From contig CAVUHO010000003.1 in assembly GCA_963741385.1 (NCBI GenBank), forward strand, positions 512,695-576,694: a stretch of 64,000 bases of DNA, written 5' to 3'. The translations under genes were made by a program, and so were the position numbers. Source of the stretch: Candidatus Sulfomarinibacteraceae bacterium (GTDB lineage: Bacteria; Acidobacteriota; Thermoanaerobaculia; Thermoanaerobaculales; Sulfomarinibacteraceae). Of the stretch, positions 1,212-64,000 are shown in pieces. The number at the start of each line of letters is the position of its first letter. Position 1 is the stretch's first letter. The notes under the pieces are model-generated. The model searched no databases and was not told where the DNA came from. It saw only the letters and a program-made list of their open reading frames with translations.

Positions 1212-2738
1212 ATGCCTCAACGACTGGAGGCGGGTGTGGCGGAAGCGGGCCTCAAGGTCCTGATGGTGACGAGCGAGGTGGTTCCGTTCGCCAAGGCGGG
1301 CGGCCTCGGCGACATGGTGGGAGCGCTGTCGAGCGAACTTGCGCGCCAGGGCCACGACGTCCGGATCGTGCTGCCGCGCTATTACTCGGTCGACGTCGGG
1401 CGGCTGTTGCGAACGGGTGGACCGCTGGGGATACCGCTGGGTCTGCGCGAGGAGTGGGCGGCGGTGTACGTCAGCCGGCTTCCGGACGCCGACGTGCCGG
1501 TGTATTTCCTCGATCACCAGGAGCTGTACGGGCGCGACGGCATCTACGGTTCCAGGGCTGAACCAGCCTTCCAAGACAATCTCCGCCGCTTTGCGTTGCT
1601 GAGCCGTGGGGCGTTTCAGCTCTCTCTGAAGCTCGACTGGATTCCCGATGTCATGCACGTCCACGACTGGCCCGCCGCCATCATCCCGGCGTGTCTGTAT
1701 GGGCGTGAATCCGCAGGCCGGTTTGCCGCCACCGGATCATTATTGACCATCCACAATCTGGGGCATCAGGGTGTGTTCCCAAAGGGGGATTTCAAATACC
1801 TGCCGCTGGCCCCGGAGCTCTATGAAACCGCCGGCTTTGCGGACGGCGACAACCTCAACCTGCTGCAGGCGGGCCTGGTCAACGCCGACATCCTGACGAC
1901 GGTTTCCCCCACCTACGCCGACGAGATCCAGACGCCGGAGCTCGGCTGTGGTCTGGACGGGCTGCTGCGACGGCGCGAGCCTGATCTCTTCGGCGTGCTC
2001 AACGGCATGGACTACGAGGTCTGGGACCCCGAGACCGATCTGTACATTCCTGCCAACTACTCACACAAGAAACTGGGCGGCAAGGAAACCAACAAGGCGG
2101 CGTTGCAGGAGGCCGTGGGTTTCGAGGTGGACCCGGATGTCCCGGTGATTGCCATGGTCAGCCGGTTGGTGGAACAGAAGGGCTTCGGAGAGCTCTGTGG
2201 GCCGACCTACGGAAGCCTGTACTCGATCTGCACCGATCTCGAGCTGCAGTTCGTTATTCTCGGCACCGGCGAGCCGTGGTGCGAGGATGAGTTGAAGGTA
2301 TTGGCGGGGAAGCTCCCCAACCTCAGCGTCAACCTCGAATTCAACGACCCTCTGGCCCACCTGATCGAGGCGGGCGCTGATTTCTTCCTCATGCCCAGCG
2401 TTTACGAACCGTGCGGTCTCAGTCAGATGTACTCACTGCGCTACGGGACCCTGCCCATCGTCCGCCGGACCGGCGGGCTCGCAGACACTGTGGAGAACTA
2501 CGACCAGGACACTGGAGAGGGGACCGGTTTCGTCTTCGACCTCCTCACACCACGCGCCATCTACGACACGGTGGGGTGGGCGGTGTGGGCCTGGTACAAC
2601 CGGTTCGAACACATCGAGGCGATGCGCCGGCGCGCCATGAAGAAGAGGTTCTCGTGGGAGGAGTCCGGAAAGCGGTACGCCGATCTGTATCGGCAGGCTA
2701 TCGACCGCCGGCTCGGGAAAACCCCGCGGACCTGGTAG
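1212..2738 (+). CDS. glgA: Glycogen synthase (GT5)
   Basis: KAGGLGD ADP-glucose motif, HDW, TIHNLGHQG, EPCGLSQMYSLRYGT, RRTGGLADTV. True start may be GTG at 1236 (GGAG upstream). Confidence 0.95.
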   Translation: MPQRLEAGVAEAGLKVLMVTSEVVPFAKAGGLGDMVGALSSELARQGHDVRIVLPRYYSVDVGRLLRTGGPLGIPLGLREEWAAVYVSRLPDADVPVYFLDHQELYGRDGIYGSRAEPAFQDNLRRFALLSRGAFQLSLKLDWIPDVMHVHDWPAAIIPACLYGRESAGRFAATGSLLTIHNLGHQGVFPKGDFKYLPLAPELYETAGFADGDNLNLLQAGLVNADILTTVSPTYADEIQTPELGCGLDGLLRRREPDLFGVLNGMDYEVWDPETDLYIPANYSHKKLGGKETNKAALQEAVGFEVDPDVPVIAMVSRLVEQKGFGELCGPTYGSLYSICTDLELQFVILGTGEPWCEDELKVLAGKLPNLSVNLEFNDPLAHLIEAGADFFLMPSVYEPCGLSQMYSLRYGTLPIVRRTGGLADTVENYDQDTGEGTGFVFDLLTPRAIYDTVGWAVWAWYNRFEHIEAMRRRAMKKRFSWEESGKRYADLYRQAIDRRLGKTPRTW

Positions 2739-53994: not shown

Positions 53995-54006
53995 ACGACG
54001 CGCCTG

Positions 54007-54077
54007 CGTGCGGGCGGGACGCCCGCACCACAAAAAATATATCGGCGGGTGTTGTGGTGCGGCCGTCCCGGCTGCAC
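54007..54077. repeat. REP doublet (family-B variant)
   Basis: GTGCGGGCGGGACGCCCGCACCAC ... GTGGTGCGGCCGTCCCGGCTGCAC in inverted orientation. Confidence 0.75.
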
Positions 54078-54127
54078 CGCGGATGATGCAGCATGGTACC
54101 GTCGGCCCGGAATGGCCCGCGCGTGAA

Positions 54128-54754
54128 ATGAAAGACCCCTACCGCAGAATCGCCGCTTTCTACGACGCCGCAGTCGAACCCTTCAATGCGGCCCTGAGGG
54201 AGTATGTCCTCAAGGTTGCCCGGCCGGAAGCGGGGATGAAGGTCCTCGAAGTCGGTTGCGGGACGGGCACCAACCTCGCTCTGTTCGCCGAGGCGGGCTG
54301 TGAGGTGTCCGGGATGGACCTCTCGCCGTCGATGCTCGACCTCGCGAAGAAAAAGCTGGGTTCAAGCGGAGATCTCCGATTGGGCGACGCTGCGGACATG
54401 CCGTTTGACGACGCCTCGTTCGATATGGTGGTCGCCTTTCTCACCCTTCACGAAATGCCGACCGCAGTTCGATCTCCGGTGGTCGCCGAAATGGCGAGAG
54501 TCACGAAGAGGGACGGCCGGCTCCTGTTGGTGGATTTCCACCACGGCCCCTATCGATTTCCGAAGGGCTGGCTCTACCGGGCCATCATCGTTCCCATTGA
54601 GATCGCCGCCGGCCGCGAGCATTTCAAGAACCACCGTGATTTTCTCCGCCGCAAGGGCCTCCCGGCGCTCATCGAAGGCAACGGTCTGACGGTCGAAAAG
54701 GAAAAGTTCACCGCCGGCGGTAACGTACTGATCACCGTCGCGAGACTCCTCTAA
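54128..54754 (+). CDS. Class I SAM-dependent methyltransferase (UbiE-like)
   Basis: VLEVGCGTG, GMDLS, GDAADMPFDDASFD. Confidence 0.9.
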   Translation: MKDPYRRIAAFYDAAVEPFNAALREYVLKVARPEAGMKVLEVGCGTGTNLALFAEAGCEVSGMDLSPSMLDLAKKKLGSSGDLRLGDAADMPFDDASFDMVVAFLTLHEMPTAVRSPVVAEMARVTKRDGRLLLVDFHHGPYRFPKGWLYRAIIVPIEIAAGREHFKNHRDFLRRKGLPALIEGNGLTVEKEKFTAGGNVLITVARLL

Positions 54755-54760
54755 GAGACC

Positions 54761-55058
54761 GTGGGCGGGTCATATACGGCCCGCCGGGAAAATGTCGTTG
54801 TGGTGGCAGGCCCTGAAGGACCTGCCTACGGTTTTCACAACACCATCGCAGAGTTCCGTGGCGGCGGGTTCAGGGCCCGCCCGTGGGATGTGTGTGAACG
54901 CGAGAGGTGCGGGGGCAGAGAAACGATTCCCCTGCCGCCCGCCCGGCAGCCGGGACGGCTGCCCCACAAAGGCGGTGCCATTCGCCAGATTGTGGGGCAC
55001 GCGTCCCGCGTGCCAGATGAGCGGAAACTCAAAACTCAAAACTCAAAACTAAGAACTC
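54761..55058. repeat. REP cluster (GTAG/GTGG family C x3, family-B doublet) plus (AAAACTC)n heptamers
   Basis: GTAGGCAGGTCCTTCAGGGCCTGCC-type hairpins, B doublet at 54945-55014, array at 55024-55058 directly after the cytochrome stop. Confidence 0.8.
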
Positions 55059-55060
55059 CT

Positions 55061-57289
55061 TCACGGCATGCGCCGGCCGGATGGATGGCGGATCATGAGC
55101 ATCGGTTCGCCGATCGCGATGGTGTCGGTTCTGGTGCACGTGGCGCTGTCGGCGGTTACCGTCAGCAACCAGCTGTAGGAACCCGGCGTGTCGTAGGAGT
55201 GGGAAACGCTTGACCCGGAGGCGACTCCGCCGTCACCGAAGTCCCACTCGAATGTCGCGGTCCCCGTGCAGTCGCTGAGCACGGCGCTTCCCGAGAACGA
55301 CGCCGCGCTGCCGGCGTGGCCGGTCGCGTCAACCGACGCCGTGCAGCTCACGGTGCAGGTGCCGCCCGCTCCGGCGACGGTGATGGTGCCGGTGCCCAGG
55401 TTGGAGTTGGTCGAGCCGTCCCACGCGGCGTAGGTGAAGCTGTCGGTGCCGCCGGAGCCGGTGAAGGGATAATACGTGGCGACCGTGCCGACAAGACCGA
55501 CGGTGCCGTTCTTCGCCTGCGACACGATGCGCAGGGAAAGGCTGTTCCCGTCGGCGTCGCTCGCCGACAGCGCGATCTGCACCGGCGTGTTCCCGTTCGT
55601 CGACGCCGTGACGTTGTGCACCACCGGCGCGCGGTTGCTGTTGCTGTTTTCGCTGTTCGGTCCGTTGTGGCAGGTGTAGCAGCCGATCTGGAATCCCTGC
55701 CAGAAGTTCTTGGTGCCGAACGCGGACACCGTGCGGCTTCCCAGCGCCCGCGACAGCACGGTGCCGCGGTAGTCATTGCCGTGGCAGGTGCGGCACCGGC
55801 TGGAGTTGCTCTCGGCGGCGTCCGTGTGCCGGCTGACCCAGTCCTGGCCCACCGGGTGCATGCCGTGCGGCCCGCCGGTCACGGTCTGCGGTTGGGTGCC
55901 GTGGCAAACGGCGCAGTCCGCCAGGACCCCGGCGTGCCCCTGCAGATCGATGTTCTGGACGTTGTCGTTGAGGTGGCTCGACGGGAAGATGGCGTGGGTG
56001 GAGCCGTGGCAGGCCTCGCACTGGAGGTTGCCGTGGCCGGTCGAGAACCGGTAGAGCGAGACGCCGGCTGCGGGAGTGTTCGGGTCGGTGGCGAAGGTGT
56101 TGTTGACCGCGACCCGCGGCTGATCCGGCGCGACGAAGGCCGTCACGTAGCGGATCTGGCCGTTGTTGTCGATCGCCGTGCCGGTGTGGCACTGCTGGCA
56201 GTTGGGCTGGTCGAACCACCCCGCGCGGCCGGTTGCGCCGACCCGGCTCATGCTGCCGTGACAGCTCTGGCACTGGATGGCGAGGTCGCCGTTGGCGGCC
56301 ACTGCGCTGCCCATCGCGCCGCGCAGACAGCGGGTGTCGGAGCCCGGGTGGCAGGTGTAGCAGGCGGAGCGGTTGGCCGACTCGTTGAGCGTCATTCCGT
56401 TCGAGGGATCGGTGACCCCTGCGTGAAAGCTGTGGATCGCCTGGGTGAGCGGCGGGACACCGCTGAGGCCGGTCCCCGGAAGGGCGTTCGAGGCGTGGCA
56501 GGCGTCGCACAGGATCGGCGTGCTGTCGGCGGTGACGGTGTCGTACAACCCGCCGGAGTTGTAGCCGGCAGCGGCGAGGGCAGCGGTGTACTGATCCCTA
56601 CCACCCTGGAGGTCGTCGTGGAGCAGGAGCACATTGAAGCGGTAGTCGAGCTCGGGGTCGGGATCGTAGATCCACCCTCCGCCCGGCCTCGCCGCGGGGC
56701 CGGAGCCCGAGCTGTGGCACGCGGAGCAGGTCATCTCGTCCGACACCGGGAGCACGATGCTGGTTGTGGCGAGCACCTGGCCGGAGGCGTTGCGGGCCAC
56801 CAGCTTCATCATCGGGTAGTAGTTCTTGGCGTGGGCGTCGTCGTACGGCGTGATCGGGATGCCCTCGGCGCTGAACCAGTCGTACCCGGTGTCGAAGTGC
56901 ATGGGCTGCGGCGTGTTGACCGATCCCGGCATGTCGTGGCCGGCGAGCCCCTGATCGGGAGCGAGCGATGCGCCGAAGAGCTGCGTCACCCAGTCCCAGA
57001 AGTTGGTCTTGTTGATCGACGAGACGTTGATCGACCCGGTCGGATCGGCCACCGCCTCGTAGGTGACGGTGATGCTTCCCGGGTTGGTCACAAGGTTGCC
57101 CGAGGCGTCGATCAACTGGGCGTGGATGACGTTGTAGGGTGGGAGGATGCTGAACACCGAGTAGTCGGCGTCCATGCAGTGCATGCCGAGGTCGTTCCAG
57201 CCGACGAGCTTGTAACCACCCCCCTGTGCGGCGGCGAGGGGCGCGATGAGTGCGAGGGCCAGTGTGGCGAAGACGGACTTTCCAGTCAT
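55061..57289 (-). CDS. Exported nine-heme cytochrome c with Ig-like and PKD domains
   Basis: Signal peptide from MTGKSV, WNDLGMHC, nine CxxCH motifs, NRAPV..DADG Ig/cadherin-like domain, WDFGDG PKD, basic tail RHPSGRR. Confidence 0.88.
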   Translation of the reverse strand: MTGKSVFATLALALIAPLAAAQGGGYKLVGWNDLGMHCMDADYSVFSILPPYNVIHAQLIDASGNLVTNPGSITVTYEAVADPTGSINVSSINKTNFWDWVTQLFGASLAPDQGLAGHDMPGSVNTPQPMHFDTGYDWFSAEGIPITPYDDAHAKNYYPMMKLVARNASGQVLATTSIVLPVSDEMTCSACHSSGSGPAARPGGGWIYDPDPELDYRFNVLLLHDDLQGGRDQYTAALAAAGYNSGGLYDTVTADSTPILCDACHASNALPGTGLSGVPPLTQAIHSFHAGVTDPSNGMTLNESANRSACYTCHPGSDTRCLRGAMGSAVAANGDLAIQCQSCHGSMSRVGATGRAGWFDQPNCQQCHTGTAIDNNGQIRYVTAFVAPDQPRVAVNNTFATDPNTPAAGVSLYRFSTGHGNLQCEACHGSTHAIFPSSHLNDNVQNIDLQGHAGVLADCAVCHGTQPQTVTGGPHGMHPVGQDWVSRHTDAAESNSSRCRTCHGNDYRGTVLSRALGSRTVSAFGTKNFWQGFQIGCYTCHNGPNSENSNSNRAPVVHNVTASTNGNTPVQIALSASDADGNSLSLRIVSQAKNGTVGLVGTVATYYPFTGSGGTDSFTYAAWDGSTNSNLGTGTITVAGAGGTCTVSCTASVDATGHAGSAASFSGSAVLSDCTGTATFEWDFGDGGVASGSSVSHSYDTPGSYSWLLTVTADSATCTRTDTIAIGEPMLMIRHPSGRRMP

Positions 57290-57557
57290 GGTGGGCCTTC
57301 TTTCCTGCAGATGACGCGAAAGGGAGGGATCGAGGTGCGGTGAGATCGGTCGCGTGTACATCTGCTGTGGCCGTGAATGACACCGCTCGACGATTCGATC
57401 TTCCGCAGGTGCGATCGAGACCAAAGGATACTCCTGTGGTCGATCGGTCACAATGTCAGGAAAGGGGAGCGGGTAGGTTTCTCAGGGAGACGGACGGTTC
57501 GGCGGAATGGCTCGAGATGAGGCGGATACGAGGCACCCGCGATCATCAATGAACGTC

Positions 57558-57797
57558 GTAGGCGGGTCCTTCAGGGCCCGCCCGGCAGCCGGGACGGCTG
57601 CCCCACAAAGGCGGTGTGGCCTCATCGCCGGATTGTGGGGCACGCGTCCCGCGTGCCGGTTGGGCGGGCGGGATTTCAATTCACCCTCGAATCCCCTCAC
57701 TTCAGGGGGAGGGTGGGCGGAAAATCCGAAATCCAAAATCCGAAATCCGAAATCTAAAGCCCAAAATTCCGAATTCCAAATTCCGAATTCGTAATTC
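57558..57797. repeat. REP C, family-B doublet, G-run motif and heptamer array (distal copy)
   Basis: Shares GGGAGGGTGGGCGGAAAATCCG...CCGAAATCTAAAGCCC with 59599-59680. Confidence 0.85.
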
Positions 57798-57867
57798 AGT
57801 ACCGATACCACTCCGCCTTGTACGGCCCTTCCACCGGCGCGTGGACCTCTCCCGCCCGCTCCTCCAT
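57796..57867 (-). other. 23-codon mini-ORF ending in a duplicate of the AhcY C-terminus
   Basis: MEERAGEVHAPVEGPYKAEWYRY-TGA; its ATG overlaps the upstream TAA (TAATG). AhcY ends [17 protein letters not shown]. Confidence 0.8.
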
Positions 57868-59111
57868 TAACGCCGTGGAGCGGCAAACCGCCACACGTCG
57901 TTGTCGACGTTGAGGTAGTTCAAGGGGTCGAAGAAATTGAAGGTCTCACGGTCGCCTCCGAAGGTGAGGATGGACGGACGCCAACCCCTCCCCGAGCCCC
58001 ACACGACTAGGGCGTCGAAGTCATACTTGATATCCTCCGGCCCGCCGGCGTTCCACGGCGAATCGCTGACCTGGTCCCAATCCCTGCCATTCTTGCTGAC
58101 CCAGACATCCATCGGATTGGAAGGTTTGAACGGGTCCGTCGGGTCGGTGCTGAGTCCGAAACCGCCGAACAGCACGATCTGGTTGAAAACCACTACTGCC
58201 TGGTGGCCCGGGCGGGCAGGCCAAGGCGCTGCGTCCGTCACGAGTTGCCAGTTGCTGCCGTCCCGCGATCGCCAGACGTCGTTGTAGTAAGGGGGGCAAC
58301 GATCGCCGGATTCGCACGTGAAACCGTCCTCGCCTCCGATCAGGTAAAGGTAACCGTTCTTCGACACGACGATCGCTCCGGCGCGCGGCGCCCATGGCGC
58401 GTGGTCGGTGACCTGGAACCAGTGAGCGCCGTCGAAGGACTTCCAGACGTCGTTGAAGTACACCCGCTCAGGCTGTCCGCCGACGATGGATGAGTCATCG
58501 TTGAACGACCCGGCCATCACGTAAATCGCCCCGCGGTGGACGACCGCTGAGAGGCCGGCCCGCCCCGCCCAGGGAGCGGCGGCCGTCATCTGCCGCCAGT
58601 TGACACCGTCCCGGCTCCGCCAGACGTCGTTGAAAAACTCTGACGCCGGGACAAACGGCGGGCACTCCGATGGAAACGGCGGACATTCGTTCTCGACGAC
58701 GTTGAAGTTCTGTCCGCCAAGTATGTACATGAAGCGGCCCATCGTGACGGCCTGGAAGTAGGCTCGCGCGGGCCAGTGGTTCTCATCGTCGGTGAAAAGT
58801 ACCGGATCCCAGGATTCGCCGAGATCGTCGCTCGCCCACACGTCGCCCCAGATGATGCTCGCTCCTGGGACAGGCACCACCGCCGGATCAAGGGGCGTGC
58901 GACCACCCATCACGTACAACCGCTTGCCCAGTTGCACAGCTTGCAGGCCGGCCCGGGGCGCCCACTGTGCAGCGGGGTTTTGAATGTCCCACTCCCAGGT
59001 TTCAATGTCGTTGATGCTCCACCATTTCTCCTCCTGGGCGACAGCCGATGAAGTTGAAAAGAGGATCAGAGCCGCGACGATGCCAAAGAGAGCTCGAGAG
59101 CGCATGGACAT
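57867..59111 (-). CDS. Secreted Kelch-like beta-propeller protein
   Basis: Signal peptide; repeated APW..RAG...YV.GG...NDVWRS.DG..W units. Confidence 0.82.
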   Translation of the reverse strand: MSMRSRALFGIVAALILFSTSSAVAQEEKWWSINDIETWEWDIQNPAAQWAPRAGLQAVQLGKRLYVMGGRTPLDPAVVPVPGASIIWGDVWASDDLGESWDPVLFTDDENHWPARAYFQAVTMGRFMYILGGQNFNVVENECPPFPSECPPFVPASEFFNDVWRSRDGVNWRQMTAAAPWAGRAGLSAVVHRGAIYVMAGSFNDDSSIVGGQPERVYFNDVWKSFDGAHWFQVTDHAPWAPRAGAIVVSKNGYLYLIGGEDGFTCESGDRCPPYYNDVWRSRDGSNWQLVTDAAPWPARPGHQAVVVFNQIVLFGGFGLSTDPTDPFKPSNPMDVWVSKNGRDWDQVSDSPWNAGGPEDIKYDFDALVVWGSGRGWRPSILTFGGDRETFNFFDPLNYLNVDNDVWRFAAPRR

Positions 59112-59211
59112 ACCCCCACTCCGTGTTTCGTTGGGGCTAATCGCTGATGTTCGACGAAAATTCCAGGCGACTCACCCGATCTTCAACCGCCCCCGAAGAC
59201 CGAGGGAGTCG

Positions 59212-59598
59212 GGGCGGGATTTGCTCGGGCCCCTCCACCCGGCAGCCGGGACGGCTGCCCCACAAAAGGGGTGCGGCCTCATCGCCGGATTGTGGGGAAC
59301 GCGTCCCGCGTGCCGGGAGAGCGGGCGGGATTTGCTCGGGCCCCTCCACCCGGCAGCCGGGACGGCTGCCCCACAAAGGTGATGCGGCCTCATCGCCGGA
59401 TTGTGGGGAACGCGTCCCGCGTGCCGGGAGAGCGGGCGGGATTTACTCGGGCCCCTCCACCCGGCAGCCGGGACGGCTGCCCCACAAAGGTGATGCGGCC
59501 TATTCGCCGGGTTGTGGGGCACGCGTCCCGCGTGCCGAGAGAGCGGGCGGGATTTGCTCGGGCCCCTCCGCCCGGCAGCCGGGACGGCTGCCCCACAA
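59212..59598. repeat. 111-bp tandem REP-doublet array (about 3.5 units, BIME-like)
   Basis: GGCAGCCGGGACGGCTGCC at 59241, 59352, 59463 and 59574; near-identical linkers. Confidence 0.92.
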
Positions 59599-59711
59599 GG
59601 GAGGGTGGGCGGAAAATCCGAAATCCGAAATCCGAAATCCGAAATTCCTAATTCCGAAATCCGAAATCTAAAGCCCGAAATTCAAAATTCAAAATTCAAA
59701 ATTCAAAATTT
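59599..59711. repeat. G-run motif plus compound heptamer array abutting the ahcY stop
   Basis: GGGAGGGTGGGCGG(AAATCCG)n...CTAAAGCCC(CAAAATT)n-TTA. Confidence 0.9.
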
Positions 59712-61122
59712 AATAGCGGTACCACTCCGGCTTATACGGCCCCTCCACCGGCACGTCGATGTACTTCGCCTGCTCGGGGGTCAGCTTCGTCAGCCTGGCG
59801 CCGAGCTGGTCGAGGTGGAGCCGCGCCACTTCCTCGTCGAGCTTCTTCGACAGGGTGGTGACGCCGACTTCATGCTCGTTCTGCCACAGGTCAAGCTGCG
59901 CCAGCACCTGGTTGGTGAAGGAGTTCGACATCACGAAGCTCGGGTGCCCGGTGGCGCAGCCGAGGTTGACCAGCCGGCCTTCGGCGAGCAGGAAGATGGA
60001 GTGACCGTCGGGGAAGGTGTACTTGTCGACCTGTGGCTTGATGGTCGTCTTGACGATCCCCGGCCATTTCTCGAGCTTTTCGACCTGGATCTCGTTGTCG
60101 AAGTGGCCGATGTTGCAGACGATGGCCTGGTCCTTCATCCGGCTCATGTGCTCGGCGGTGATGATGTCGCGGTTGCCGGTGGTGGTGACATAGATGTCGG
60201 CGATCGGCAGGGCATCCTCCACCGTCATCACCCGGTAGCCTGCCATGCACGCCTGGAGCGCGCAGATCGGGTCGATCTCGGTCACGCAGATCTGCGCCCG
60301 CTGGCCGGCCAGAGACTCGGCCGAGCCCTTGCCGACGTCGCCGAAACCGCAGATCAACGCGACCTTGCCCGAGATCATGACGTCGGTGGCGCGCTTGATG
60401 CCGTCGACCAATGACTCGCGGCAGCCGTAGATGTTGTCGAACTTCGACTTGGTGACCGAGTCGTTGACGTTGATCGCGGGCACCAGCAGCTCGCCGCGCT
60501 CGGCCATCTGGTAGAGGCGGTGGACGCCGGTGGTGGTCTCCTCGGAGACGCCTTTCCACTCACTCACCACATCGTGCCAGCGGCGGGGCTCGACGCCCTG
60601 CACTTCCTGGAGGAGCTTGTTGATGATCTGCAGCTCCTTGTTGTCGGTGGGCTCGGTCAGGATCGACGGGTCGTCCTCGCCCTGGTAGCCGCGATGAATG
60701 AACAGCGTGGCGTCGCCGCCGTCGTCGACGATCAGCTGAGGCCCCTTGCCGCCGGGAAAGGAGAGGGCCTGTTGGGTGCACCACCAGTACTCCTCGAGGG
60801 TCTCGCCCTTCCAGGCGAAGACCGGGGTGCCGCCCGCCGCGATGGCGGCCGCCGCGTGGTCCTGAGTCGAGAAGATGTTGCACGAGCACCACCGCACATC
60901 GGCGCCGAGATCCGCGAGCGTCTCGATCAGCACCGCGGTCTGGATGGTCATGTGCAGGCTGCCCATGATGCGAACGCCCTGCAGTGGTTTCTGCGGACCG
61001 TACTTCGCCCGGGTCGCCATCAGCCCCGGCATCTCCTTCTCCGCGATCTCGATCTCGCGCCGGCCCCAGTCCGCCAGGGCAATGTCCTTCACTTTGAAAT
61101 CGGTGGTCGTCGACGTGGTCAT
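59710..61122 (-). CDS. ahcY: Adenosylhomocysteinase
   Basis: [59 protein letters not shown]. Confidence 0.98.
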
Positions 61123-61233
61123 GGCTCGTCCTTTCTTGAGAGAACCGATCGCAACGACGATGAGTCGTGCTGACCGGATGTGTTGCGGGGCAGGATTCTA
61201 TCGCATCATCGACATATGAGATAATTGCTTTGG

Positions 61234-61785
61234 ATGAAAGGTCATTCCAGCCGATTTCCCATCGATGTCAACGACCTGCCGCACGAGTGGCTGGTGGTCC
61301 GCACCAAGCCCCGGCAGGAGCGGGTCGCGGTGTGCCATCTGCGCCAGCGCGAGGTGGAGCCGTATTGCCCGATGTATCTGGAGCCGCCGTGGCACTCGCG
61401 GGCGCCCAAGGGGCCGACGCCCCTCTTCGGCGGTTACATCTTCGTCCGCTGCAACCCGCGGCTGCACCTCAACGCTGTGAGCTACTGCCCGGGCGTGCAA
61501 CACCCGGTGCGTTTCGACCGCGAGTTGGCGACGGTCGGAGAGGACGTGATCGCCGCCATCCGGCAGCGGGAAGCCGACCGCGGGTATGTGGTCCCGACCG
61601 AGATGGAGTGCGGCATCGAAAACGGCCGTAAAGTGCGAGTGATGGCGGGTCCGCTCAAAGGCATGGAAGGAGTCTTCAGGGGCTACTTCCGGGGCGGACA
61701 GCGCGCCCGGGTATTGATGGAATTCCTCCGTCAGCGAAGCCTGGTGGAGGTTGAGATTGAGCTGCTCGCCGTGGTGCGAGCCTGA
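61234..61785 (+). CDS. RfaH/UpxY-type NusG paralogue (operon-specific antiterminator)
   Basis: WLVVRTKPRQE, PLFGGYIFV (NGN), VRVMAGPLKGMEGVF (KOW); precedes a sugar-nucleotide gene. Confidence 0.85.
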   Translation: MKGHSSRFPIDVNDLPHEWLVVRTKPRQERVAVCHLRQREVEPYCPMYLEPPWHSRAPKGPTPLFGGYIFVRCNPRLHLNAVSYCPGVQHPVRFDRELATVGEDVIAAIRQREADRGYVVPTEMECGIENGRKVRVMAGPLKGMEGVFRGYFRGGQRARVLMEFLRQRSLVEVEIELLAVVRA

Positions 61786-61851
61786 CGGGTCGAAATCAGT
61801 TTCGATCCGCTAAATCAAACTAAATCAATAGGTTGCACATGCAATCATAGT

Positions 61852-61859
61852 GCGGTAGC
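61852..61859 (+). promoter_or_regulatory. ops-like element
   Basis: GCGGTAGC matches the core of the RfaH ops consensus GGCGGTAG; lies between the NusG paralogue and the operon. Confidence 0.55.
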
Positions 61860-61873
61860 CTCGCGAAGAGCGC

Positions 61874-62474
61874 AATTTTGAATTCTCAATTTTGAATTTT
61901 GAATTATTGGATCGAAGGCTAGTGAGAGGTTCGAGAGCGCCAATGAGAACCCGATGAGCGACAACCTCCAATACGAGCACTTCGACGGCGGTGCCGATTG
62001 GGTCGGGGTTGCGGATGCGTCCGAGAATCCAGTTCGGGAGAAGAGCTACCAATTCGCTCTGGCGGTCATCAGACTTTACGGCCGTATCCAGGAGCAGAGG
62101 GAGTACGTGATCTCGAAGCAACTGCTCCGATCTGGCACCAGCATCGGTGCCAATGTTGAAGAGGCGATCGCGGCGGAGAGTCGGCGGGATTTCGTCCACA
62201 AGATGGCGCTCGCATCAAAAGAAGCTCGCGAGACCGTGTATTGGCTGCGACTCCTGTCCGATTCGGATCTCGTCCCAGATCTGGATGCCTCCAAAGAACT
62301 CGGTTCTGCACAAGAACTCGTCCGCCTGCTGACCTCAATCGTCAAAACGACCGCACAGAGCCGGTGACCGGCCGGAAATATGACTCACTCGTCCTTTGTC
62401 GATGAATTTACTCGAATGCACCCTGGGCACCGCTGCCCGCAATTCAAAATTCAAAATTCAAAATTCAAAATTCG
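61874..62474. mobile_element. Heptamer-bounded element carrying an intact four-helix-bundle gene
   Basis: (AATTTTG)n at 61874-61908 and inverted (CAAAATT)n at 62440-62474 flank the ORF. Confidence 0.75.
61954..62367 (+). CDS. Four-helix-bundle protein (TIGR02436 / 23S rRNA IVP family)
   Basis: KSYQFA, SKQLLRSGTSIGANVEEA, DFVHKM..ASKEARETVYWLRLL. Confidence 0.92.
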   Translation: MSDNLQYEHFDGGADWVGVADASENPVREKSYQFALAVIRLYGRIQEQREYVISKQLLRSGTSIGANVEEAIAAESRRDFVHKMALASKEARETVYWLRLLSDSDLVPDLDASKELGSAQELVRLLTSIVKTTAQSR

Positions 62475-62507
62475 ACCTCGTGATTGCGCCTGGAGCATCC
62501 ATCAGCC

Positions 62508-63533
62508 ATGACTTCACCTGAAAGCAAAACCGTCCTCGTAACAGGAGCGGCCGGTTTCATCGGCTATCACCTCGCCGAGCGGCTGCTCGGCGACGGGCGG
62601 CGCGTGATCGGCCTCGACATCGTCAACGACTACTACGATCCTGCCCTCAAGGAGGCGCGGCTCGAGCGGCTCGCCGGCCACGACGGGTTCACCTTTGCCC
62701 GCATCGATCTCGCTGACCGCCGCAAGATGGAGGCGCTCTTCGCCACCTACGGGTTCGACACGGTGGTCCACCTCGCCGCCCAGGCGGGCGTCCGCTACTC
62801 CATCGAAAACCCGCACTCCTACGTCGAGTCGAACCTGGTGGGTTTTCTCCACATCCTCGAGGGCTGCCGCCACACCGGGGTCAGCCACCTGGTCTATGCC
62901 TCGTCGAGCTCGGTCTACGGCGCCAACACCGCCATGCCCTTTTCGGTGCACGACAACGTCGACCACCCGATGTCGCTCTACGCTGCAACCAAGAAGGCCA
63001 ACGAGCTCATGGCCCACACCTACTCGAACCTCTACGACCTGCCGACCACGGGCCTCCGCTTCTTCACCGTCTACGGACCGTGGGGCCGACCCGACATGGC
63101 GCTCTTCAAGTTCACGAAGAACATCCTCGCCGGCCAACCCATCGATGTCTTCAACCACGGCCACCACCGGCGCGACTTCACCTACATCGACGACATCGTC
63201 GAAGGCGTGGTGCGGGTGATGCACAAACTCCCCGAACCCAATGCCGAGTGGTCTGGAGACAACCCCGATCCGGGCACGAGCCGCGCTCCCTGGCGGGTGT
63301 ACAACATCGGCAACAACCAGCCGGTCGAGCTCATGCGCTACATCGAGGTCATCGAGGAATGCCTCGGCAAGAAAGCCGAGATGAACATGCTTCCCCTGCA
63401 GCCCGGCGACGTCCCCGACACCTACGCCGACGTCACCGCCCTCACCGACGACGTAGGCTACAAGCCCGACACACCGATCGAAGAAGGCATTCGGAAGTTT
63501 GTTGAGTGGTACCGAGAGTATTACCAGGTTTGA
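62508..63533 (+). CDS. NAD-dependent epimerase, UDP-glucuronate 4-epimerase-like
   Basis: [47 protein letters not shown]. Confidence 0.93.
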
Positions 63534-63582
63534 ATTTCGGATTTCGGATTTCGGATTTCGGATTTTTCCCCCTCCCGCCCCC
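63533..63582. repeat. Heptamer array plus G-run motif starting at the epimerase stop
   Basis: TGA-(ATTTCGG)4-ATTTTT-CCCCCTCCCGCCCCC. Confidence 0.88.
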
Positions 63583-63601
63583 TGGAACTGATCGTCAACT
63601 G

Positions 63602-63972
63602 ATGATGGACAAACAAGAACTTGAACATCGGACCAAAAAGTTCGCCGTGGATGTGATCAGATTTGTCGGCAGGATTCGAGTCGTCCACTGCCGGTCGTGT
63701 CATCGGCAACCAGCTACTGAAATCCGGCACCTCGATCGGGGCGAACTACCGAGAAGCGAATCGTGCGGTTCCGGAGAAGACTTCGTTCACAAGATCACCA
63801 TCGCGCGAGAAAGAGGCGTCTGAGACCGCCTACTGGCTGGAGATCTGCGCCGAGACCTCACTGGGCAATCGTGACGTATGTCGCGAGTTGTCGACCGAAG
63901 CGAGGCGAGTTCCTCGCGATCTTCACGTCGAATAGGCACGATCGGTCCGGAGTCGAACGACCAGAAATCTGA
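63602..63972 (+). pseudogene. Second four-helix-bundle gene with multiple frameshifts (possibly assembly errors)
   Basis: LEHRTKKFAVDVIRF / IGNQLLKSGTSIGANYREA / DFVHKITI / KEASETAYWLEI spread over different frames. Confidence 0.8.
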
Positions 63973-64000
63973 TCAAAACGAGAACTCGCGGAGTTTCCGG

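Follow-up and report, generated by a model that had tools for sequence, protein, structure and literature searches.

In this work, we have analysed a stretch of 64,000 nucleotides (the window; G000:C3:512695-576694, on a contig of 606 kb) from the genome of a Candidatus Sulfomarinibacteraceae bacterium (4.77 Mb in 17 contigs, 64% G+C). Our results show that the 3' end of ahcY, the gene for S-adenosylhomocysteine hydrolase, occurs twice in the window together with a heptamer array and a G-run, and that these two copies, 1.9 kb apart, bracket four repetitive extragenic palindromic (REP) units and a gene for a Kelch-repeat protein. We propose, with a probability that we put at about 60%, that the region holding the second, orphan copy (57707-57861) is a non-functional recombination scar, left by one homologous exchange and one illegitimate join. 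Positions refer to the window unless a contig (C) or an extracted locus (L) is named; G000 is the genome that holds the window, and the other G numbers are genomes of relatives. The features of the locus, read down the minus strand from ahcY, are the following.

59710-61122, minus strand: ahcY, intact, 470 aa, read as an open reading frame (ORF).
59710-59775, minus strand: functional copy of the duplicated 66-nt ahcY 3' end, TAA stop, of native type by its likeness to G007.
59613-59709, minus strand: tail 1, heptamer arrays with four ATTTTGA units, one ATTTCGG, the linker GCTTTAG and ATTTCGG units.
59599-59612, minus strand: G-run 1, GGGAGGGTGGGCGG on the plus strand and a C-run on the gene strand (repeat search).
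59190-59598, no strand: four REP-type palindromic units with a 111-nt period (repeat search).
59112-59167, minus strand: 5' leader of the Kelch gene, 56 nt, moving together with the gene (homology to G009).
57867-59111, minus strand: Kelch-repeat protein gene, 414 aa, with a signal-peptide-like N-terminus, the cargo (Pfam Kelch families).
57838-57866, minus strand: junction zone, 29 nt, from the Kelch stop codon to clean ahcY homology.
57796-57837, minus strand: orphan ahcY 3' end, PVEGPYKAEWYRY-TGA, the last 13 codons and a stop, foreign-type allele.
57721-57795, minus strand: tail 2, a first array of ATTCGGA type, then the GCTTTAG linker and ATTTCGG units as in tail 1.
57707-57720, minus strand: G-run 2 (98% over 47 nt against tail 1).
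57670-57706, minus strand: spacer, 37 nt, unique in the genome and orthologous to the spacer between ahcY and the cytochrome gene in L127.
57576-57669, no strand: single REP pair behind tail 2 (repeat search, copy at 60%).
55061-57292, minus strand: multihaem cytochrome gene with PKD and Ig domains, the downstream neighbour (Pfam, synteny).
54008-54754, plus strand: S-adenosylmethionine-dependent methyltransferase gene, convergent, the conserved far border of the variable interval (Pfam).

An earlier description made from the letters of the window, here called the sequence-only reading, had reported a second ahcY end with the same tail beyond the Kelch gene, and all the elements that it listed are present. 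As it had stated, the last 13 codons of the two ends carry five synonymous differences and one P/A exchange, and the stop codons also differ; the duplicated stretch exists as described but reaches 66 nt into the gene and not about 40. In the repeat search, 57720-57861 and 59634-59775 gave an ungapped match of 142 nt at 78%, and 57707-57753 and 59599-59645 a stretch of 47 nt at 98% over the G-run and the ATTTCGG units. The identity between the copies is a mosaic, being about 77% from 66 nt before the end of ahcY (-66) through the stop codon and the first array, then 98% over the linker, the ATTTCGG units and the G-run, and ending in poorly alignable REPs, of which there are four after ahcY and one after the orphan; the block behind ahcY comprises, in the repeat search, three full copies at 92-100% plus inverted pairs. 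The 47 nt at 98% consist of common heptamers and the G-run, and the gene-end part is 77% identical. Between -66 and -43 the orphan shares 15 of 24 bases with ahcY, compared with a mean of 7.7 for random in-frame 24-mers of the genome (P=0.0017), and its 9 nucleotide differences change six of the eight codons non-synonymously; this short stretch may come from ahcY or from the flank of the Kelch gene. Homology to ahcY ends by about -66 to -90 nt, right at the Kelch stop codon, and an AhcY search of the whole G000 genome gave no match beyond the gene and the orphan fragment. Plain heptamer and REP motifs are found in 141 to 436 genome copies (REP half-sites in 141 and 44). The linker motifs GGGCTTTAGATTTCGG and GGGAGGGTGGGCGGAAAATCC (a 21-mer that includes the G-run) have exactly two genome copies each, both at this locus, so the pair represents one specific duplication and not two independent arrays. 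A 23-codon ORF, MEERAGEVHAPVEGPYKAEWYRY, lies on the minus strand at 57796-57867; its ATG overlaps the Kelch stop codon as TAATG and it ends at the TGA of the orphan.

Which of the two ahcY ends is the native one? The sequence-only reading had assumed that the insertion supplied ahcY with a replacement C-terminus from a related allele, and this assumption is contradicted by comparison with relatives. AhcY is present in 25 of the 31 genomes searched (G000 included); full-length, unbroken orthologues of 85-97% amino acid identity were found in eight genomes of the genus and partial or split matches in four more, and the protein is 70-80% identical to named AhcY loci of other phyla. At the nucleotide level the G000 gene is 92.6% identical to that of G007 and 92.3% to that of G004. 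Its functional end and first array resemble G007, as does the whole gene: identity to G007 ranges along ahcY from 87 to 97% per 100-nt step and is 93% in the last step, the functional end shares 63 of 66 nt, and the first five heptamer units of tail 1 (ATTTTGA four times, then ATTTCGG) are identical to those of the G007 tail. No clear switch marking a recombination breakpoint inside the gene was seen in the sliding-window identity of ahcY to seven relatives.

It is the orphan that is the divergent copy. Its 66 nt match the own gene of G000 at 50 positions, G007 at 49 and G014 at 55, and over the last 42 nt it shares 39 with G014 and G003 versus 35 with the gene next to it. The orphan peptide, PVEGPYKAEWYRY, is that of the G013 end, its K-A-E codons are shared with G011, and its P-to-A variant occurs naturally in both G013 and G011. 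In the last 13 codons there are five synonymous differences versus one non-synonymous, where the expected synonymous fraction is 0.205 (P=0.0018). Since the differences are mainly synonymous and the P-to-A state is a natural one, they arose in working genes, that is, the two ends are two alleles. Tail 2 equals tail 1 from the GCTTTAG linker onward, so that the change from foreign-type to resident-type sequence falls after the first array and before the linker. Judged by these sequence comparisons, AhcY has kept its native C-terminus, and the orphan belongs to an allele of a different lineage.

The state without the insertion, which the sequence-only reading had predicted as ahcY directly followed by the cytochrome gene, was found in L127. 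In this named locus, the order is ahcY, tail, spacer CTGAAGTGNGGGNATTCGAGGG, REP, cytochrome gene and methyltransferase gene. The spacer of L127, CTGAAGTGCGGGAATTCGAGGG, matches G000 at 57684-57705, directly after the tail of the orphan, and this pattern is single in G000 with up to two mismatches allowed; hence the ancestral downstream DNA continues from the orphan and not from the functional end. The downstream comparison covered six contiguous loci and L127. Heptamer arrays directly follow the ahcY stop codon in all sampled members of the genus, and the methyltransferase gene was found at the same border in six relatives. Between the ahcY tail and the methyltransferase gene the relatives carry the following.

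G007 and G014: empty, with a gap of about 260-300 nt.
L127: spacer, REP and cytochrome gene.
G002: an unknown ORF, a PIN-like ORF, a four-helix-bundle (4HB) gene and the cytochrome gene.
G004: other genes, over 3.5 kb.
G005: DNA rich in REPs, 1.65 kb.
G010: synteny is lost behind ahcY.

The interval is therefore highly variable, as its contents in this list make plain; the cytochrome gene occurs in L127 and G002 and was not found in the interval of G007 and G014. Genes of the 23S_rRNA_IVP family also belong to the variable content beside ahcY, in G002 and in other relatives. Among the seven intervals compared, G000 alone has a second ahcY end. No further orphan of the ahcY end was found at E <0.1 in the 24 other genomes of the genus, where only weak matches appeared (E 0.13 to 0.63), and no second full ahcY copy was found in the relatives, the matches of G004 (frameshift) and G005 (repeated 5' part) being split into pieces. 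In G005, contig C12 (L027, 2215-9670) carries a tandem duplication of an epimerase gene, a nusG-like gene and the first ~229 ahcY codons that directly precedes the complete set; with the 9% contamination listed for G005, the tandem duplication may be an assembly artefact.

We propose that two versions of the ahcY downstream region have been spliced in G000, one with the order ahcY, tail, REPs and Kelch gene, and the other with the order ahcY, tail, spacer, REP and cytochrome gene. The illegitimate join would have linked the Kelch stop codon to a point between -42 and -66 in the ahcY of a different lineage of the genus, and a homologous exchange, or a later conversion, would have taken place in the ATTTCGG/G-run part of the tail that is now 98% identical in both copies. 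One of the two junctions does lie in shared sequence, the 98% tail, and the junction between the Kelch stop codon and the second ahcY end has patchy similarity only (15/24). General host recombination enzymes would suffice for these steps, by homology-facilitated illegitimate recombination (HFIR) of a linear fragment or by single-crossover integration of a circularised fragment; no dedicated recombinase would be needed, and the arrays would act only as a patch of shared sequence. Candidate routes are a circular intermediate, unequal sister-chromosome exchange, and a two-step process followed by a later conversion. The statement of the sequence-only reading that no integrase is present holds: the cargo is the Kelch gene alone, and the three PF00589 genes of the genome lie at C10:43 kb, C10:841 kb and C8:192 kb, none of them on the contig of the window. 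No tyrosine recombinase (PF00589) was detected in or near the insertion, in a search that did not extend to serine recombinases.

Two other housekeeping genes of G000 have comparable duplicated 3' ends. We scanned the last 30 residues of 2343 ORFs (>=150 codons, third-position G+C content >=0.8) for matches within 15 kb, a scan that would miss orphans of short genes or of genes with low third-position G+C, and copies below ~60% identity; an unrestricted scan of 8903 crude ORFs was noisy, with antisense ORFs and duplicated contigs. The restricted scan gave 68 local matches, mostly tandem paralogues, and it recovered the ahcY stub and two look-alikes, at lipA and ppdK. The sequence-only reading had suggested that further duplicated gene ends should be sought beside arrays; duplicated ends were indeed found, but they do not depend on arrays, as there is none at ppdK. 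The lipA gene (C10:34597-35499) has its orphan 3.3 kb downstream, with 139 nt at 90% made up of the last 62 nt of the gene and a 76-nt tail; the lipA interval (C10:31088-35499, L195) contains two further repeated blocks, of 206 nt and 62 nt, in rearranged form, and its cargo ORFs of 294 and 248 aa had no Pfam match. Relatives do not have this insertion.

The orphan of ppdK (C10:1585780-1588554; L194, extending to 1593893) lies 5.3 kb downstream of the gene, with 371 nt at 92% that comprise its last 320 nt and 51 nt beyond. Here the insertion is 4.9 kb long, has 53-58% G+C and no array, and carries a gene for a protein of 1327 aa (Ser/Thr kinase-AAA_16-TPR), to which relatives in the genus are only 30-33% identical. 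In at least five relatives ppdK directly precedes the gene that follows the orphan in G000, i.e. the insertion is absent. In the ppdK pair, identity is 99-100% over the first ~240 nt; the last ~130 nt are diverged, with mostly synonymous differences (by hand count, ~11 synonymous versus 1 non-synonymous in the last 19 codons). One illegitimate join together with one homologous crossover would be expected to leave such a pattern. In none of the ahcY, lipA and ppdK insertions was a recombinase found, the PF00589 genes lying elsewhere and serine recombinases not having been searched for. The duplication of a gene 3' end at an insertion thus recurs in G000, independent of arrays.

Other repeats of gene ends were noted during this work. 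In G000:C6, a repeat of ~200-300 nt takes in the 3' end of a 404-codon ORF and recurs 15.6 kb away (560023-561497 and 576028-576234; L196; 96-100% amino acid identity). In G000:C3:120077-125140, an 898-codon ORF has its 3' part in triplicate, as tandem copies ~1.1-1.2 kb apart whose last 30 residues are 100% identical. The small contigs C2, C5, C7, C11, C12 and C13 have ORF ends 80-100% identical to ORFs on C3, C4 and C6, and look like diverged second copies or strain variants in the bin.

Where does the cargo come from? The Kelch gene was matched in 3 of the 25 genomes of the genus, G000 included. On contig C6 of G009 there is a Kelch gene whose product is 85% identical; nucleotide homology (82.7%) is confined to 57876-59167 of the window, so that it starts 9 nt inside the 3' end of the gene and runs to 56 nt before its start codon, and no similarity was found between the flanks of the two loci beyond both stop codons. 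This copy lies between unrelated genes, without arrays, and no Kelch relic was found beside the G000 orthologue of its GST-like neighbour gene (C6:741782-742390). In G034 the gene is a broken copy with two TGA stops. We also recovered 80 metagenome loci with Kelch relatives (48-88% identity), and in none of them was ahcY, another neighbour of the G000 gene or a heptamer array present.

A decayed stretch resembling an ahcY end was found upstream of an internally deleted Kelch copy on contig C10 of G009 (L030 ~1640-1880, minus strand), a genome without a full AhcY match. The remnant is ~61% identical to ahcY over 74 nt, by hand count on the alignment, and behind it come a T-rich remnant and a C-run similar to the one in the ahcY tails. 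Judged by their ORF translations, the neighbouring genes are presumably a lycopene-cyclase-like gene and an MnhE-like gene. A related ahcY-end stretch lies upstream of the Kelch gene in the metagenome contig L034 (7-96), L035 and L037 keep the C-run block, and the CCTGGAATTTTC block of the Kelch leader in G000 recurs upstream of the Kelch gene in L034-L037 and at the G009:C10 locus. The presence of ahcY-end remnants beside Kelch genes elsewhere means that ahcY ends and Kelch genes have been neighbours in more than one arrangement.

Several points weigh against the origin that we propose for the orphan. A Kelch gene directly downstream of ahcY was found neither in the 24 other genomes of the genus nor in the 80 metagenome loci, and with it no donor arrangement. 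The remnants at G009:C10 and L034 hint at a longer shared history of ahcY and Kelch genes than a one-off event. The state of L127 could just as well have arisen from the filled one, by a deletion between the repeats, and the order of events that we propose, from empty to filled, is one that we infer. A single linear-fragment event alone leaves unexplained that the distal parts of the tails are 98% identical and the proximal parts 22% different, and a crossover or a conversion must be added. The stretch from -66 to -43 is far more changed than the last 42 nt, which is not what uniform decay predicts, and some small contigs of the bin look like diverged versions of larger ones.

The remnants and the lipA and ppdK look-alikes can also be put together in a broader hypothesis, which we regard as speculative and rather unlikely. 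Genes of this lineage may move as recombinase-free 'anchored cassettes', in which the cargo is joined to the last few dozen bases of a housekeeping gene and its tail. The stub would be a portable piece of homology, and a circle or an ends-in fragment would integrate behind the same gene in related genomes, duplicating the stub; the ahcY remnants upstream of the Kelch gene (G009:C10, L034) and the stub downstream of it (G000) would be circular permutations of one unit, and lipA and ppdK would be further docking genes.

Could a complete second ahcY, arisen by tandem duplication or acquired as a xenologue, have left the orphan when most of it was deleted or overwritten by the Kelch gene? We consider this an unlikely origin. 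The partial tandem duplication of G005, which at the same locus involves the epimerase gene, the nusG-like gene and the first 229 ahcY codons, would give it a precedent, and an orphan that is allele-like and shaped by purifying selection is what a former gene would leave. Against it, no relative has two full ahcY copies, the ahcY homology breaks off after ~66-90 nt, precisely where the Kelch gene has its stop codon, and two events and a precise replacement would be required; furthermore, the lipA and ppdK orphans have the same short-stub anatomy.

The sequence-only reading had gone further and proposed that units of a gene 3' end plus an array act as cassette junctions for gene capture. The genome of G000 contains ~650 AT-rich heptamer/octamer arrays, with 273 Tandem Repeats Finder (TRF) matches for the unit AAATCCG, 126 for AAAATTC and 125 for AATTCCG, and many of them are followed by an GGGNGGGNGGGCGG run and REPs. 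At 315 of the 650 arrays, the T-rich strand carries a long ORF that ends just ahead of the array, versus 172 of 650 on the opposite strand, so the arrays sit at gene ends. Within the window, genes of the 23S_rRNA_IVP (four-helix-bundle) family are flanked by heptamer arrays (61874-61905, 62441-62473 and 63534-63565). When the 1300 array flanks were compared all-against-all (word-8 blastn, alignments within 15 nt of the array edge), six small flank families included the end of an ORF of >=100 codons. Among the ~650 arrays, the ahcY pair is the only diverged pair of a long ORF and a short fragment within one contig; one further pair of this type links C6 with the haplotig-like contig C13, and the remaining families are near-identical larger repeats or paired long ORFs.

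The proposal of general cassette junctions did not survive this comparison, with its one within-contig case among ~650 arrays and the kin of the Kelch gene array-free elsewhere. An active system of this type, recombinase-independent or with a recombinase acting in trans, in which gene 3' end, heptamer array and G-run form att-like junctions that capture or exchange cargo, is in our opinion improbable. It would account for the differing cargo downstream of ahcY across a genus in which all sampled ahcY genes are followed by heptamer arrays, for the ahcY remnants and C-run upstream of the Kelch gene in G009:C10 and L034 and the C-run block of L035 and L037, and for three 3'-end duplications in one genome. 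It is opposed by the single diverged within-contig case, by the array-free ppdK insertion and G009:C6 Kelch locus, by the absence of arrays and ahcY from all 80 metagenome Kelch loci, by the lack of another ahcY-end orphan at E <0.1 in the other 24 genomes of the genus, and by a Kelch-side junction that is not at a repeat. Moreover, different cargos bracketed by the same junction repeats were not found in G000, where lipA and ppdK use their own gene ends, in the case of ppdK without an array.

A chimeric join of two strain haplotypes in this metagenome-derived genome is very improbable. The two ahcY ends do differ like alleles of two strains, and the small contigs of the bin resemble diverged copies of parts of large ones. 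A haplotype mis-join needs shared sequence, however, and the junction of the Kelch stop codon with the second ahcY end is only patchily similar; in addition, a Kelch gene beside ahcY occurs in no other record, the contig is 606 kb long with the array of four 111-nt REP units intact, and the assembly contains no alternative haplotig of the ahcY locus. Finally, that the orphan was retained for a function, as a 3' untranslated region or terminator module of the Kelch gene or as the translationally coupled 23-codon ORF, is hardly to be expected: its last 13 codons and stop are intact and without decay next to 24 heavily changed nucleotides, and the bias of ORF ends (315/650 vs 172/650) suggests a 3'-end role for arrays, but such intactness over 42 nt is also expected of a recent event, Kelch homologues elsewhere lack such a tail, an Rfam search of 54000-64000 gave no family, and a simple scan found no promoter-like site and no terminator-like hairpin at either tail.

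What does this locus tell us about gene gain? It provides a natural example, from an uncultured marine-sediment bacterium, of a gene inserted behind an essential housekeeping gene without damage to that gene and without a mobile-element enzyme. The orphan stub keeps the foreign allele and thus records DNA exchange between lineages of the genus. The three scars in one 4.8-Mb genome, at ahcY, lipA and ppdK, point to gene gain that regularly proceeds here through recombination with its anchor in a conserved gene. Scanning metagenome-assembled genomes for orphan gene ends could be an inexpensive way to trace past transfer.

Among the closest parallels is recombination that needs no element-encoded enzyme. 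Passages of PMC5361080 describe HFIR leaving displaced 3' modules, and also the 'C-terminal displacement' of type VI secretion system (T6SS) and Rhs loci; the mechanism of HFIR is treated in PMC3240628 as well. As outlined there, incoming DNA is anchored by homology at one end, which in our case would be the housekeeping gene or its tail, and joined illegitimately at the other, without an element-encoded recombinase. The classical form replaces or deletes recipient DNA, whereas here the target stretch has been doubled, for which a sister-chromosome exchange, a circle or a second step would be needed; in G000, HFIR is proposed from sequence. In the C-terminal displacement of Rhs, contact-dependent inhibition (CDI) and T6SS effector-immunity arrays, a new 3' segment with its cargo comes to lie behind a conserved body and the old end is left as an orphan stub, much as in our locus. 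Those are polymorphic toxin genes with tips that differ in function, whereas here a housekeeping enzyme has two tips alike but for one residue, and at ahcY the functional tip is the native one.

Marine Beggiatoaceae offer a parallel for the arrays and not for the duplication, with the hundreds of intergenic heptamer direct repeats (TAACTGA) reported in PMC4679880. On that account, they share with G000 the abundance of short intergenic heptamer arrays in a marine sediment bacterium; the unit sequence and the phylum are different, and the arrays of G000 lie right against stop codons, with a G-run and REPs behind them.

Integrative elements that restore a gene 3' end also leave direct repeats, including that end, around an insert and the gene intact. 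Such elements carry an integrase and near-identical att repeats, whereas our insertion has no integrase in or near its cargo, repeats that are 78% identical, and one junction that lies off the repeat. In Campbell-type insertion-duplication by a single crossover, a piece of the target is likewise found twice around the insert, as hybrid copies, and this fits the diverged-identical-diverged mosaic of the ahcY locus. It is known mainly as a laboratory plasmid method, and a natural circular intermediate carrying the Kelch gene and the second ahcY end is here a hypothesis. We conclude that the event at ahcY was most likely of a known kind, and that the orphan is most probably a scar of ordinary recombination between related bacteria, not the product of a new gene-capture machine.

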